Positions 30,664-59,361 of a DNA stretch of 64,000 bases are shown piece by piece. Origin of the DNA: Rhodospirillaceae bacterium (GTDB taxonomy: Bacteria; Pseudomonadota; Alphaproteobacteria; Rhodospirillales; JABJKH01). Both the position numbers and the translations under genes were made by a program. Numbering within the stretch: the stretch's first letter is position 1; each line of letters starts with the position of its first letter. The notes beneath the pieces are model-generated. The model searched no databases. It was given only the letters and a program-made list of their open reading frames with translations, and was not told the DNA's origin. The stretch is from the NCBI GenBank assembly GCA_018660465.1, contig JABJKH010000041.1, positions 6,650-70,649 of the forward strand. Reading direction: 5' to 3'.

Positions 30664-31197
30664 CTACCCCTGCGGCGTCAAATTCAGTGTCCGAATAAAA
30701 ACCTGCATGCCGTAGTTGATGGTCATGTAGTTGCCGAGTTCCATGATTTGGGCTTCGGAGAAGTGGGTCTTACCTTCGTCGTAGAACGCCTTATCGACCT
30801 TTGCGGGTTCCCGGTACATCAGGTAGCCGTAGCGGAACGCCCATTTGTGGGCGTCGCTAAACTGGGGTTCGTTTTCAAAGTCGCCACAGGCAGCCTCAAT
30901 CAATTCTTCAGTCAGGCCCCGTTTCATGGCCTTCTTCGATCTGAGGGAGGCGAAGTACTTGTCCCCTGCCAGCCTGGCCAACTGAATGCGAATGGCTTCT
31001 TTCAGGCGCACGTCCAAGCCACCGTTTTCATACGCCTGGCGCATGGCGTTGAACAGGGCCTCGGCATAATTGGGCGCGTGAGCCAACACCTCAAAGAACT
31101 GCTTATCGGCAATCCCCAGGTCTTCGGCCAAGGCCATGTATTCCTTAATCTTCGGCTTCTCTAAGTTTTCAGCCGGCGCGGAGTCAATGTAAGCCAT
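30664..31197 (-). CDS. Carboxymuconolactone decarboxylase (AhpD-like) family protein, Cys-less paralog
   Basis: 177 aa, colinear with the neighbouring AhpD-like selenoprotein. KEAIRIQLARLAGDKYFASLRS aligns with KEIIRIQLSRHAVCNYUGNVRS. Confidence 0.75.
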   Translation of the reverse strand: MAYIDSAPAENLEKPKIKEYMALAEDLGIADKQFFEVLAHAPNYAEALFNAMRQAYENGGLDVRLKEAIRIQLARLAGDKYFASLRSKKAMKRGLTEELIEAACGDFENEPQFSDAHKWAFRYGYLMYREPAKVDKAFYDEGKTHFSEAQIMELGNYMTINYGMQVFIRTLNLTPQG

Positions 31198-31212: not shown

Positions 31213-31869
31213 CTATTCAGCAGCCGAGTCGGGCGCTAAATCTAAAGCGCGCTCCATCGCCCCTTCGGTGTGGGATATTGGCGTCGTGCCATAGATTTCT
31301 TTTGATTCTTCCTGGCTGACCAGCCGTCCGTCCGGCGAGAACATCGGATAGAAATCCAATGTCCCAAAGAACGTGTGGAAACCAATGTTAACGCCAATGT
31401 AGGTGCCGAGCTCGACAATTTCTTCCGACGAATAATACTTTTTCAAGTCGTCGTAGAACGCTTCGTCGATCTTGTCTAAATCCGACGCCATGTATTCGCT
31501 ATAACGCAGCGCTGCCTTTTCGGCATCGGTAAACCGGTCGCTGGCTTCATAGTTATTGATGCCTTCGTCGATGTCTTCTTCCGTCAATCCTTGCTGCTTC
31601 GCCGAAGCAGACCGCACGTTGCCTCAATAATTACAGACGGCGTGCCGGGACAGTTGGATTCGAATGATCTCTTTTAGCTTGTGATCGACCACGCCGGAAT
31701 TAAACACCGTGCCCCACGCCACATACATGGCTTCGGACAGGTCCGGGTTGTGGCCCTGCATGGCATGGAACGCCGGGTCCGGCGCACGGTGCTTCAGGGC
31801 CTTCTTAATATAAGGCGCAAGCTTGGTCTTATTCAGCTCATCGATATCAAGCATCGAAATATTAGGCAT
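31213..31869 (-). CDS. AhpD-like (carboxymuconolactone decarboxylase family) predicted selenoprotein with C-x-x-U motif (TGA at 31624-31626)
   Basis: ORFs 31624-31869 and 31213-31617 share one frame and are separated only by TGA. The joined sequence is ...LSRHAVCNY-U-GNVRSASAKQQGLTEEDI.... It aligns with the downstream paralog across the stop, and the CxxU sits where AhpD has CxxC. Confidence 0.8.
31594..31610 (-). promoter_or_regulatory. Candidate SECIS hairpin for the AhpD-like TGA
   Basis: On the minus-strand RNA the hairpin is CUGCUUC-GGC-GAAGCAG (perfect 7-bp stem, or 6 bp with a CGGCG loop). It begins 13 nt after the UGA. Confidence 0.4.
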
Positions 31870-54381: not shown

Positions 54382-54786
54382 TCAATAAAGCGTACTCCCG
54401 TCCGTTGTTGATACATGCGCGCTAACGACTTTCCAGCCAACGTCCGGGAATTTGATCCAGGTTTGGGTTTGTCGACCGATAAGGTCTTGGCCGCGGACTT
54501 TGAATTCTAGATTGACGGTGGCTGTGTCATCACCAATTGTCAGGATTTCGAGCCGAATTCTTTTTTCCTTAATGCCGGGCCCTGGCTTTCGAGCGACGCG
54601 GAAAGCGTGGATGGCATCGAAGCCGTAGCCGTGTTCACCCATGGCGAGGCGCACGGTAAAAGGGCTGTTCCAAAATGTGTCGTCGAGAACGTCCACATTT
54701 TTCTCAACCAGTGCGACTTCATAAGCTTCGAATTTCTGGCGCACTTCCTCGACCACTTCGGGGATGTTGGGGGTGTAATCTTTCAT
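54382..54786 (-). CDS. NTF2-like AtzH/HpxZ-like (DUF3225) protein
   Basis: 134 aa. The F.AYE.AL...NV..LD..FW.SP.TVR....E..YGF.AI.AFR.AR pattern matches the family from memory. Confidence 0.5.
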   Translation of the reverse strand: MKDYTPNIPEVVEEVRQKFEAYEVALVEKNVDVLDDTFWNSPFTVRLAMGEHGYGFDAIHAFRVARKPGPGIKEKRIRLEILTIGDDTATVNLEFKVRGQDLIGRQTQTWIKFPDVGWKVVSAHVSTTDGSTLY

Positions 54787-54810
54787 CGTGATTCCTCTGG
54801 AAATTCAAAT

Positions 54811-54840
54811 AAAAAAAGGCCCGCCTTTATTGAGCGGACC
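54811..54840 (-). terminator. Rho-independent terminator after the GrdB-like gene
   Basis: On the minus-strand RNA: GGUCCGC-UCAAUAAAG-GCGGGCC followed by UUUUUUUAUUU. It lies 29 nt past the stop at 54869-54871. Confidence 0.6.
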
Positions 54841-54868
54841 TTTCTTTAAGCAGTCTACTTTAGTTCCG

Positions 54869-56086
54869 TCAAACGTGTTTCAACATTGCGTTCGGAACGT
54901 AGGCCGTTCGTCCCATTGTTTGCAGGGCCTCGGTCTCATGACCCAGGCACAGTTCCCGCAATTTGATGAACAGCTTTCCGGCAAGGGTTTCTCCGTAATA
55001 CCAATCACTGATTTGAACATCGGAAACACTTCCGGGTTTCGCCATTGCCGCCTGATAATAGAAATATTTCAGATCATCAGCGGTTAGCTTCAACGCACGG
55101 CCAATTGGCTGGCCTTCCATGAAGCTGTCGATGCTCGGGTCGTCAACAAAGCTAACTAGGAAATCGATGATCTCCTCGGGCGAATATTCGGTCAGACCAT
55201 CTAATCTCCGACCCTTAAAGTTCTTGATCGATTCTTCATACCACGGACGCAGCAGGACGACTTCTTGCTTCAAATCCAAGGCGAGTTTTTCTGCATCGCT
55301 TAGATCATTCTGTGGAGCCGCCAAGTTTACCGGGCAGGTCCAGCCTTCCATATCCGCCGGTGGCCCCGGAGGCGCATCGGGGAAATCTTCGATGAACGGC
55401 CCGTCATTGCGTTCGAGCAATTTAAGCGCACCCAACAGGACCCGGCGTTGAAAATCCGGCTCATTCGGCGCGCCAAACGGACGCCCCAGTTCAAACGGTA
55501 CGAACAGTGCCCGCGGTGGACGCAGGCCTTCGGTGTGTTTTCGGATCAAGCTGATTTGCGTCGTCGGCAAACCTTCGCGTTCCAAGTAGTGTGCCAGCCC
55601 GCCCACGGCGCGCGTGCATTGAGGTCAAACGCCAGCGAGGATAACCCCGGTCACGTTGTCACTTTTCAAAAGTCCCGCCAGATCCTTGGAAACAGCAGCA
55701 TGTGCCATCGGCGGTGTCGCCCCCATAAAGGCGTAATGATAGTCGGCAACTTCGCCAACATCGCCACTTGCTGCCAGTTCTCTCAAACGCTCAATCGGGA
55801 AGACAATGTTGAGGTCCTGTTGAAATCCCGTGCGATCAAAGTTGGTGGAAACGTGGCTCATGATCAGATCATCCATATCCGTATCGTTGGGGATGATTCG
55901 GTATTCACCGACACCTGGGGTGAATTCTTTATCTTCGCGGCGGTGCAAACCTGCCGTTGTAATGATCGCGACTTTTCGTTCGTTGAGCGCCGGGCCATCA
56001 GCGCAAGTTGTATCGTCATAATCAGGCAGATCCTGATTGACGATCATGTTGCGCTGCTTTTCCGGCATGTCTGATAAATGGGCCAT
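54869..56086 (-). CDS. GrdB/PrdB-like (glycine/sarcosine/betaine/D-proline reductase selenoprotein B family) predicted selenoprotein, U-x-x-C (TGA at 55625-55627)
   Basis: ORFs 55625-56086 and 54869-55606 are in one frame, and the 18-nt gap has no other stop. The joined sequence is ...NVTGVILAGV-U-PQCTRAVGGLAHYLEREGLPTTQ.... Family-typical stretches VAIITTAGLH, MSHVSTNFDRTGFQQD.N and FPIERLRELA are present. Confidence 0.75.
55592..55618 (-). promoter_or_regulatory. Candidate SECIS stem-loop for the GrdB-like TGA
   Basis: On the minus-strand RNA, UGCACGCGCGCC-GUG-GGCGGGCUGGCA can form an interrupted GC-rich stem of about 11 bp with a GUG apical loop. It starts 6 nt after the UGA. It was folded by eye only. 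Confidence 0.3.
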
Positions 56087-56200
56087 AATAATCCTTTGGC
56101 TATGCCTAAGTTAAGTTGTTGGGAATTGAGCGAATAGTCCTGTGCGGGGGCCTTTCGATCAAGGTCTCATCGCAAAAATTTATGCGGACTTTGTTCACAT

Positions 56201-56521
56201 TTACGAGAACGTTGCCAATTCTTTGGTTTTGACCGCAGTCGACTGCCGCATCATTTCTTCGGCGATCTCGATCAGGTCTTTCTTATAGGCGTCTGCATCA
56301 AAGCCATCTTCAAAATAGCCTTCTTCGACGCCCCGGTCGACCGTGCTCAGCGCGTACCAGATCACTTCATATACCTTGTCATAGCAAAATGAGTTCGCAC
56401 CGCCTTCAAGAACCTGTATTCCTGCGAGATCAAACAGGCCGGCATCCTCTCTGTTTGATCCATTTGAAAGGGCCGTGGCCGTGGCTTCTTGGGTCAAGCG
56501 CAAGATCAAGTCGGTATTCAT
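56201..56521 (-). CDS. Hypothetical protein between selU and the GrdB-like gene
   Basis: From the ATG at 56521 the product is 106 aa (MNTDLILRLTQEATATALSNG...). The longer ORF-track version would overlap selU. No family was recognised. Confidence 0.4.
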   Translation of the reverse strand: MNTDLILRLTQEATATALSNGSNREDAGLFDLAGIQVLEGGANSFCYDKVYEVIWYALSTVDRGVEEGYFEDGFDADAYKKDLIEIAEEMMRQSTAVKTKELATFS

Positions 56522-56558
56522 ATTGCTGTCCTTAAAATGTGGATTTTGTACGCAGCGC

Positions 56559-57671
56559 TCACAATAGGCTTCTTTCTTTGGCCCACTCAAGCACCTCATC
56601 ATACGATCCGTGAAATATGATTTTATCGGATTGTTTGCCGAGTTGGTATTCACACATCGGGTCGTAATAATCAGCCAACAGCGCCACGATCCAGCCTTCG
56701 TGATCACTGGTGTCGTCCTGTTCTTCCTGCTTCTTCAGCGCGGCGTCCATCAAGGCCGAAATCTTTTGGTATCTTTCCAGCCCCAGCCGCCGTTTCACGC
56801 GCATAAGACTTTGAGTTAAATAATCGACAAACAGCTCAAACCCATTGTCTGGATGCGCCTCCAGGAACTCCTGCGTCATTTCAATGACATACTCCCGCAA
56901 GATGCATTGCACCCGGTCCGCCACCGGCATTTCCACGATCGCCACATCAGCCGCGCGCATTTTATCGTAGAAATCTTTTGGGATTGTACTGGGGCCAATC
57001 GACTGGCTTTCATCTTCGACGATTAAAGTGCGGCCTTGAAAGGCGTGGCGCTTCTGCAGCAATTCAATGCCGAGAGCGTTCTCAAAATCAATTTGTGACG
57101 GCACACCGGAAACCCTGTAGCCAAAGCTTGAGCCGCGATGATTGGCATGACCTTCCAAATCGATGCTGAAGTCGACGGCATTGACCAGGGCCGTCTTCCG
57201 GGTGCCCGTCTTGCCGCCGATCCGGATGATCGGCACTTCTGCCGCCGCCTTATCAATTGTGTCGATCAACAGCCGCCGGAGCGCCTTGAACCCACCATCG
57301 ATCAAGGGCACATCGACCCCTGCTTCATGCATCCATTGTCGGGCATAATTGGACCGCATGCCGCCGCGCCAGCAATACATGTGGGTGTTCGCGTTGGCCT
57401 TGGCGAAGTCGCACCAGGCTTGAATGCGTTGATCCTTGGTGTCGCCCGCGACCAACTTGTGGCCCAGTTCGACCGCGGCTTCCCGACCCTTCTGCTTATA
57501 GCAGGTGCCGACCAATTGACGTTCGTCGTCGTTTAGGATTGGGATGTTTTTAGACGTTGGAAAACCACCCTTGGCAAATTCAACCTCCGCCCGCACATCC
57601 AAAAACGGCGTGTGCGCCAGAAACAGATCCCTAAATTCTTCAGAACGAACGATGTGGTCTAGCATTTTCAA
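56559..57671 (-). CDS. selU: tRNA 2-selenouridine synthase (SelU/MnmH/YbbB)
   Basis: N-terminal rhodanese domain with the active-site loop YCWRGGMRS, then the P-loop GGKTGTRKT. Length is 370 aa and the overall pattern matches the YbbB family. Confidence 0.85.
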   Translation of the reverse strand: MKMLDHIVRSEEFRDLFLAHTPFLDVRAEVEFAKGGFPTSKNIPILNDDERQLVGTCYKQKGREAAVELGHKLVAGDTKDQRIQAWCDFAKANANTHMYCWRGGMRSNYARQWMHEAGVDVPLIDGGFKALRRLLIDTIDKAAAEVPIIRIGGKTGTRKTALVNAVDFSIDLEGHANHRGSSFGYRVSGVPSQIDFENALGIELLQKRHAFQGRTLIVEDESQSIGPSTIPKDFYDKMRAADVAIVEMPVADRVQCILREYVIEMTQEFLEAHPDNGFELFVDYLTQSLMRVKRRLGLERYQKISALMDAALKKQEEQDDTSDHEGWIVALLADYYDPMCEYQLGKQSDKIIFHGSYDEVLEWAKERSLL

Positions 57672-59040: not shown

Positions 59041-59361
59041 TTAGTTGAACAAGCTAAGGATTGTTTTCTCTGATTCGCCAGCGAACGATTGGCCGTCGTT
59101 ATCTAGTTTTTGACGAACATCAAGCGCCAGCAACTTAGCCGCTTCTTCGGAAATGCTCGGGCCATTTTCTATGTCTTCGATTGATGGCGCAGCATCGGCT
59201 AACTTTTTGGCCCCCGCATCAACGTTAACGCGCGCCGCGTCATCGTCACGTTTATCTTCCGCCTGTCGAGAATCATCTTCGGCCTTTTTTTCGAAAACCG
59301 CTGTCTTACGGAGGGCGACGAGATCGCTGGCCAGCGCGGTCGAGACTTTAATGTCTACCAT
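59041..59361 (-). CDS. Hypothetical acidic protein
   Basis: 106-aa ORF rich in D, E, A and K. No family was recognised. Confidence 0.4.
   Translation of the reverse strand: MVDIKVSTALASDLVALRKTAVFEKKAEDDSRQAEDKRDDDAARVNVDAGAKKLADAAPSIEDIENGPSISEEAAKLLALDVRQKLDNDGQSFAGESEKTILSLFN

Follow-up and report, generated by a model that had tools for sequence, protein, structure and literature searches.

A block of three genes on the minus strand of a 64,000-nucleotide stretch of Rhodospirillaceae contig JABJKH010000041.1 (positions 6,650 to 70,649; hereafter, the window) has probably been assembled by rearrangement. It consists of the tRNA 2-selenouridine synthase gene selU (mnmH), a 106-codon open reading frame (ORF106), and a PrdB/GrdB-like selenoprotein gene (gene B), and is followed by an intrinsic terminator and an AtzH/HpxZ-like gene (Table 1). 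The block would thus be a lineage-restricted, contingent operon, and not an ancestral or widely conserved selenium operon. All the elements that a first-pass annotation of this DNA had joined into one selenium gene string (selU, the 106-codon ORF, the TGA-containing gene, the terminator, and the AtzH/HpxZ-like gene) were found where it had placed them, as were the gaps of 37 nt (56558..56522) and 114 nt (56200..56087) between the three genes, and the gene identities it had given were borne out by Pfam and NCBIfam profile scores.

The origin of the block can be read from the 114-nt spacer between ORF106 and gene B. In the nearest outgroups of the selenoprotein (70–90% identity), the cluster consists of a divergent HxlR gene, an AhpD-like gene with a TGA codon (motif, C-A-Y-U), a paralogue of B (gene A), and B itself, which is the last gene of the cluster, begins 54–67 nt behind A, and is 44–48% identical to it. 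The 114-nt spacer aligns to the final ~100 nt of gene A, stop codon included. With the end of gene A in locus L028 (L-numbers are labels of the loci compared, and P-numbers are those of protein homologues), the spacer of the window gave a local alignment score of 26 (shuffled sequences, 9.1 ± 1.4; 0 of 1000 reaching this score), and the corresponding spacer of locus L099 gave a score of 40 (shuffled sequences, 9.0 ± 1.3; 0 of 1000). The reading frame derived from A is now broken by stops in the spacer, and the similarity to A starts directly at the stop codon of ORF106. On its other side, ORF106 shares similarity with a free-standing homologue in locus L090 from 28 nt before the start codon. 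Judged by these alignments, the 114-nt spacer is what remains of the 3′ end of paralogue A, and the gene string would therefore be a product of rearrangement. Together with the upstream similarity of ORF106, the relic makes the string a composite with two junctions, one between selU and ORF106 and the other between ORF106 and the A remnant followed by B, and this composite would have taken the place of what originally lay upstream in the selenoprotein operon. The locus thus offers a clean and datable case in which a selenoprotein gene appears to have been cut from its native operon and put behind another selenium-dependent gene.

The gene order is restricted to a narrow lineage, in which SelU is at least ~81% identical to that of the window (loci L006, L092, and L099). 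Scanning one genome per species yielded at least 563 PrdB-like loci, of which the best 80 are used for the counts given here; 69 of the 80 have at least 1.6 kb of upstream sequence, and 69 have at least 500 bp of downstream sequence. A metagenome scan for SelU gave 80 loci, among them 79 with a SelU of no more than 75% identity, of which 75 have a downstream flank of 500 bp or more and 59 one of 1.7 kb or more. No match to SelU, ORF106, or the AtzH-like protein was found in the 80 PrdB-like loci (69 informative upstream and 69 downstream). Conversely, among the SelU loci of no more than 75% identity, ORF106 lies downstream in none of the 75 informative loci, and a PrdB-like gene in none of the 59 with the longer flank. 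The only locus among the 80 SelU loci that keeps the block order is L099 (SelU, 85%; ORF106, 92%; selenoprotein, 89% identity); L006 (SelU, 87%) and L092 (SelU, 81%), both found through ORF106, also retain it. Nucleotide homology between the window and L099 spans window positions 57669..54809, from the selU start to the terminator end, and the flanks differ on both sides. The wider flanks of the window, which include GGDEF, SDR, and SpoIIE-sensor genes among others, show no synteny with the SelU or PrdB-like relatives, and clustering of the ORFs in the 80 PrdB-like loci revealed nothing common to more than 10 loci except tandem paralogues. Conservation of the neighborhood in relatives, set beforehand as the observation on which the proposed arrangement should stand or fall, was accordingly not found, the arrangement being absent from the 69 PrdB-like and 75 SelU informative loci.

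ORF106 had been put forward as a candidate new partner of the two selenium genes. It has no match in Pfam, NCBIfam, PHROGs, or PADLOC; its homologues form only three clusters (81–95% identity), and no remote relatives were detected among 1.84 billion representatives. Its length is conserved, and differences at the third codon position dominate, with a ratio of nonsynonymous to synonymous substitution rates (dN/dS) of 0.05–0.08. The predicted protein is acidic (isoelectric point, 4.2) and soluble, with one invariant cysteine (Cys46), and its AlphaFold2 (AF2) model is a five-helix bundle with a predicted local distance difference test (pLDDT) score of 84, for which a Foldseek search against the PDB returned only generic helical bundles (best E-value, 0.25; template modeling score, ~0.4). 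Judged from its sequence conservation, ORF106 is a real gene and an orphan. In L090, its 81%-identical homologue has an HxlR regulator gene on one side and two Lin0512-family genes on the other, and neither selU nor a PrdB-like gene is close by. The proposed partnership thus finds no support, as this close homologue resides in an unrelated context and ORF106 is tied to selenium only by its position in this single lineage; most simply, it is a passenger gene. Two other origins or connections were considered and rejected, namely, that ORF106 is a remnant of paralogue A (it shows no similarity to any PrdB-like locus and exists as an intact gene elsewhere), and that an HxlR gene links its other context with the PrdB-like cluster (the two HxlR proteins are only ~30% identical). 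A second 106-aa ORF in the window (59041-59361, minus strand), located between the GGDEF and SDR genes, has no Pfam match and is a called gene in every close relative; its sequence is unrelated to ORF106.

As the first-pass annotation had proposed, the three genes form a compact unit that ends at the terminator, and L099 keeps this block despite different flanks on both sides. The terminator has a stem of 16 pairs followed by a T-run, with a folding energy of −25.3 kcal/mol as compared with −17.9 ± 3.0 kcal/mol for shuffled sequences (z = −2.5). The hairpin recurs in L099, where loop changes and a single G–U to A–U exchange are the sole differences, and the homology of L099 to the window ends right after the T-run. 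Between selU and B, no convincing terminator was found; the one minus-strand match, with a stem of 5 pairs, falls within the selU coding sequence itself. Purifying selection acts on each of the three genes (dN/dS, 0.03–0.09) at a synonymous divergence (dS) of 0.5–1.0. The only promoter-like match upstream of B (56114..56085) was discarded, as the start codon lies partly within its −10 element. Since B was formerly an internal operon gene and no usable promoter was found in the relic spacer, B would most probably be transcribed by read-through from the selU promoter, with the three genes being co-expressed and the transcript from selU through ORF106 to B ending at the terminator. As for the further suggestion that selU and the selenoprotein gene are co-regulated by selenium supply, nothing in the sequence points to selenium-responsive regulation. 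The only functional tie between the two would be that both require selenophosphate supplied by SelD, for which the window has no gene, and the selenocysteine (Sec) and selenouridine traits have been described as functionally independent apart from SelD (PMC2398784). Because the linkage is lineage-restricted and rearranged, two linked selenium functions such as these should not be read as a regulon without comparative support.

Several points weigh against this overall reading. The block has stayed intact over a dS of 0.5–1.0 and in at least two genomic contexts, and selection for co-expression would give the same picture. In 7 of the 80 loci, SelD or an Ndh-SelD protein is encoded no more than 10 kb from the PrdB-like gene, which represents about three independent cases. 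A scan for sigma-70 promoters catches those of alphaproteobacteria poorly, so that an internal promoter may have escaped it. Furthermore, the selenoprotein chemistry described below is extrapolated from distant clostridial enzymes, and no pyruvoyl partner of the PrdA/GrdE type is found among the Pfam labels of genes within ~8 kb, where PrdA and GrdE were not searched for directly.

Alternatively, the block may be a selected selenium-utilization module, in which selU and the selenoprotein gene are co-expressed, both drawing on selenophosphate, and ORF106 is a dedicated accessory factor, such as a chaperone, a selenium-delivery protein, or a redox partner acting through its single invariant Cys46. 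The preservation of the block in L099 between different flanks, the strong purifying selection on all three genes, the weakness of the sole terminator match between them (the 5-pair stem in the selU coding sequence), and the presence of SelD genes near PrdB-like genes in the 7 loci mentioned above are all consistent with such a module, and clustering of a selenoprotein gene with the Sec machinery is known for fdhA (PMC1794560). Nevertheless, we consider it unlikely, because the linkage is missing in every informative PrdB-like (69/69) and SelU (75/75) locus, and the block arose through a junction that destroyed a paralogue. Moreover, the 81%-identical homologue of ORF106 is unlinked to selenium genes, ORF106 has no other relatives although the selenoprotein family spans many phyla, and the Sec and selenouridine traits are treated as independent in the literature (PMC2398784).

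It is quite unlikely that the three genes are merely adjacent and independently transcribed, without forming an operon, from promoters located in the 37-nt or 114-nt spacer or in the upstream coding sequences. A spacer of 114 nt is long for the interior of an operon, ORF106 brought along its own 28 nt of upstream sequence, and a sigma-70 consensus scan has little power in such an organism; however, the spacer is a coding relic and not a native promoter region, its sole promoter-like match overlaps the start codon, and a strong terminator follows the third gene whereas no convincing one separates the genes. In the outgroups, furthermore, B is an internal operon gene at 54–67 nt behind A. The reading of the block as a rearranged, contingent operon transcribed from the selU promoter is the more probable one.

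The single in-frame TGA of the selenoprotein gene B lies within a U-x-x-C motif, and every homologous copy from the 80 species-level loci (93 of 93) also has TGA at this codon. The hosts of these copies include Alpha-, Beta-, Gamma-, and Deltaproteobacteria, Chloroflexi, and Entotheonella, among others. A protein search returned hundreds of homologues, mostly C-terminal fragments of 245–251 aa, which are the signature of genes cut at the conserved TGA, and a few full-length proteins, among which P0018, P0067, P0070, P0073, P0078, and P0083 have cysteine in the TGA column (PV-C-PNC-TRA in the Cys form as compared with GV-U-PQC-TRA in the window). A hairpin resembling a selenocysteine insertion sequence (SECIS) follows the UGA, with its GUG loop starting 18 nt past the codon. 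In the alignment of 92 sequences, 80% of the cells are paired in this hairpin as compared with 29–57% when the pairing partner is slid; compensatory changes occur at three stem pairs, including GC/CG and UA swaps that alter the encoded Arg, and the covariation score was reached by only 1 of 500 shuffles. The window's own copy has two mismatches, and the region folded alone does no better than shuffled sequences, so the hairpin is visible only through the 92-sequence comparison. Purifying selection acts on the selenoprotein across its whole length (dN/dS, 0.03–0.08).

Based on the conserved TGA, the Cys-form homologues, and the hairpin, which together uphold the earlier prediction, the TGA of the window is read as a genuine Sec codon, with Sec decoded at codon 154. 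The alternative, in which the TGA terminates translation or reflects an inactivating mutation and leaves two fragments or a pseudogene, agrees with the 153-aa and 245-aa products of the public gene calls and with the lack of tRNA-Sec, selA, selB, and selD in the 64-kb window, but is effectively refuted by the same three lines of evidence (the codon being identical in copies from many phyla), by the selection over the full length, and by the family being a documented selenoprotein family (PMC1088965, PMC2398784). As had been anticipated, standard annotation splits the selenoprotein, into fragments of 153 aa and 245 aa. The PrdB-like gene should instead be annotated as one 405-codon selenoprotein, and the AhpD-like TGA gene of the window, described below, likewise.

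In profile searches, the selenoprotein matched the Pfam family GRDB (PF07355) with 35.7 bits (cut-off, 22), its motif being U-P-Q-C, and stayed far under the thresholds of the PrdB model TIGR04483 (95.4 bits; cut-off, 300) and the GrdB model TIGR01917 (43.9 bits; cut-off, 602), and under that of the subfamily model TIGR01918 (51.3 bits; cut-off, 65.45). With 405 aa, it is longer than PrdB (~240 aa); residues 33–225 align to positions 26–219 of the 238 positions in the PrdB model, and a C-terminal domain of ~180 aa has no Pfam match. Among the Pfam labels of genes within ~8 kb, neither PrdA nor GrdE (for which no direct search was made) nor GrdA, GrdC, or GrdD is found. A comparison of the family profile with PDB chains by sequence gave no match, and a structure model of the PrdB-like protein from a 7-sequence alignment had a pLDDT of 54, which is too low for a fold search. 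The window selenoprotein is thus an ordinary member of the known marine “PrdB” UxxC family, not PrdB or GrdB proper. This “proline reductase PrdB” family, listed in Table 2 of PMC2398784 under pfam07355, comprised 42 genes in the Sargasso Sea and 235 in the Global Ocean Sampling (GOS) data, and is among the most abundant marine selenoprotein families (PMC1088965, PMC2398784).

By analogy with the clostridial enzymes, the selenoprotein is probably a reductase subunit of the PrdB/GrdB type. In this scheme, the nucleophile would be Sec154, and the intermediate would be resolved by Cys157 to a selenenylsulfide, which would in turn be re-reduced by a thiol or selenol partner. The GrdA–GrdB pair suggests a natural candidate for this partner in the relatives, namely, the AhpD-like CxxU selenoprotein encoded alongside. 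What role the abundant marine PrdB-like selenoproteins play, with no PrdA/GrdE partner evident nearby, is the wider interest of this family.

The window also contains an AhpD-like/CMD gene (31213-31869, minus strand; PF02627, 34.8 bits) with a TGA at 31624-31626 in a C-N-Y-U (CxxU) motif. Directly downstream on the same strand, the ORF at 30664-31197 encodes a 37%-identical paralogue with no in-frame stop in the alignment. The TGA gene is a second selenoprotein candidate and probably one of the two further TGA genes to which the first-pass annotation had referred. Of the three Sec codons that it had counted in the window, those of the PrdB-like and AhpD-like genes are thus accounted for, and a third was not found by motif and ORF-pair scans. 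In the closest relatives of the window selenoprotein (L011, L017, L018, L019, L026, L027, L028, and L096/L097), three to four selenoprotein genes lie within ~4 kb (for example, L028:8077-11572). There, two AhpD-like TGA (CAY-U) genes flank HxlR, with the forward copy directly upstream of one or two PrdB-like genes; in L019, the divergent AhpD-like copy alone was detected. Genes for major facilitator superfamily (MFS) transporters are located upstream. The recurrent pairing provides a lead for the function of the PrdB-like proteins. It is conceivable, if rather improbable, that either the ancestral AhpD-like/PrdB-like cluster constitutes an uncharacterized two-selenoprotein reductase system in aerobic marine bacteria, as the GrdA–GrdB analogy would suggest, or the present block is a selected module with ORF106 as an accessory; of these two, the reductase cluster is the more plausible. 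If such a system did exist, the locus in the window would be a derived fragment of it, rewired onto the selU promoter.

PrdB-like genes also frequently occur as head-to-tail tandem pairs, 30–90 nt apart and each with its own TGA (L012, L020, L021, L027, L029, L033, L043, L063, L072, L080, and L089; also L026, L028, and L039), an arrangement that suggests a hetero-oligomer. The 7 of 80 loci with a SelD-like sequence within 10 kb compare with ~0.4 expected by chance, although they are few and partly non-independent. In five related loci (L020, L021, L023, L024, and L025; for example, L021:11791-14019, minus strand), the SelD-like sequence is part of an ORF of ~740 aa in convergent orientation to the PrdB-like gene, which looks like the Ndh-SelD fusion described for GOS; in L081 (1648-2598), the SelD-like sequence is directly upstream of the PrdB-like gene, and L056:53-826 is a further case. 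In L026 (11723-11790), the orthologue of the window gene loses all similarity two codons past the TGA (LAGV*PP, then unrelated sequence), a break that could stem either from chimeric assembly or from a true rearrangement at the Sec codon.

The first gene of the block encodes a full-length equivalog match to the NCBIfam SelU model NF008751 (473.4 bits; cut-off, 361), also scoring 320.8 bits with TIGR03167 (cut-off, 219.75). The rhodanese active-site loop YCWRGGMRS is intact, and the Walker A motif of this predicted tRNA 2-selenouridine synthase is GGKTGTRKT (residues 152–160; window 57195-57221, minus strand). Its Arg replaces the Gly of most SelU proteins (GGxTGTGKT), and the nearest clade has Ala at this position (GGKTGTAKT); because the Arg form is also found in L006 (87% identity), it is not a sequencing error. 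The dN/dS of SelU is 0.09 against both L099 and L006. In loci with a SelU of no more than 53% identity, selD adjoins selU in 54 of 60 cases, in line with the description of selD and ybbB as genes that “almost always form an operon” (PMC1794560). No SelD-like sequence is found near selU in the 20 loci of the window's SelU clade, nor is there one in the window.

The AtzH-like gene behind the terminator scored 140.4 bits with PF11533 (cut-off, 27) and 130.5 bits with the HpxZ model NF033625, just under the cut-off of 135. It had been counted as a member of the string, but lies outside the block, as it is missing in L099, where the synteny breaks right after the terminator, and is absent in 69 of the 69 informative PrdB-like loci. 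The last T of the terminator run is 23 nt before the ATG of the AtzH-like gene, and the 82-nt intergenic region (54787-54868, minus strand) is mostly occupied by the hairpin, with hardly any space for a promoter of its own. The AtzH-like gene may be expressed by read-through of the terminator or from a promoter inside the selenoprotein gene.

The 64-kb window matches contig JABIUR010000004.1 of the metagenome-assembled genome (MAG) GCA_018700815.1, the source of the public gene calls. Related MAGs occur in the Saanich Inlet “SI” series from oxygen-minimum-zone samples. Neither selA, selB, selC, nor selD was found within the window, and it contains no tRNA of any kind, including tRNA-Sec. An Rfam scan of the whole window gave no family at the gathering score, and hence no curated SECIS or riboswitch model applies. 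The positions of the features in and around the block are compiled in Table 1.

Table 1. Features of the selU–ORF106–selenoprotein block and its neighbor (positions in the window)
Feature	Position	Strand	Remarks
mnmH/selU, tRNA 2-selenouridine synthase	56559..57665	minus	368 aa from ATG 57665, the start taken by gene callers; mechanical ORF from TTG 57671
selU–ORF106 spacer, 37 nt	56522..56558	minus	holds the ORF106 ribosome-binding site AAGGA
ORF106, acidic all-helical orphan, 106 codons	56201..56521	minus	ORF, selection, AF2 model
ORF106–selenoprotein spacer, 114 nt	56087..56200	minus	read as a degenerate remnant of the 3′ end of the PrdB-like paralogue A, otherwise lost; putative rearrangement junction
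PrdB/GrdB-like selenoprotein gene B, one 405-codon frame, motif GV-U-PQC-TRAVGG	54869..56086	minus	profile matches and conserved TGA
UGA, Sec codon, codon 154, sole TGA in frame	55625..55627	minus	
SECIS-like hairpin, 11-pair stem, GUG loop	55592..55618	minus	92-sequence comparison
Predicted intrinsic terminator, GC-rich hairpin and U-run, closing the block	54810..54848	minus	folding and conservation in L099
AtzH-like/HpxZ-like NTF2-fold gene, neighbor outside the block	54382..54786	minus	PF11533

SelU, the selenoprotein, and the AtzH-like protein all have known counterparts. Like the marine PrdB family, the window selenoprotein belongs to Pfam GRDB, has a UxxC Sec and a post-UGA SECIS, occurs in Sec forms that far outnumber the Cys forms, and is found in marine Alphaproteobacteria and many other phyla, whereas the gene neighborhoods, the C-terminal extension of ~180 aa, and the tandem pairs are undescribed in the reports on that family (PMC1088965, PMC2398784). 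With the clostridial D-proline reductase subunit PrdB and with GrdB/F/H, it shares a homologous core and a catalytic Sec in a UxxC motif, but differs in its scores far under the equivalog cut-offs, in its extra C-terminal domain, and in the hosts of its family, which include presumably aerobic marine bacteria. Its motif is UxxCxxA (UPQCTRA), in which the second Cys of the GrdB motif UxxCxxC (PMC13188914) is missing. The neighboring gene shares the NTF2-like AtzH-like domain (PF11533) with AtzH of the 1,3-dicarboxyurea amidohydrolase family and with the oxalurate catabolism protein HpxZ, but scores below the HpxZ equivalog cut-off, stands behind the terminator, and is unlinked to the block in relatives.

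As for the arrangement, the window has a bona fide, selenophosphate-dependent selU/mnmH, as in the selD–selU (ybbB) operon, but the genes that come after selU here are an orphan and a selenoprotein gene, and selD is not adjacent. A selenoprotein gene clustered with another selenium-dependent function is also known from grdA–grdB and from fdhA beside selABC; those clusters are kept across many taxa and each serves one pathway, whereas the block in the window occurs in one narrow lineage only and brings together two pathways that are not known to interact. In comparison with these systems, SelU, the PrdB-like family member, and the AtzH-like protein are known components, and the arrangement is new but narrow and derived.

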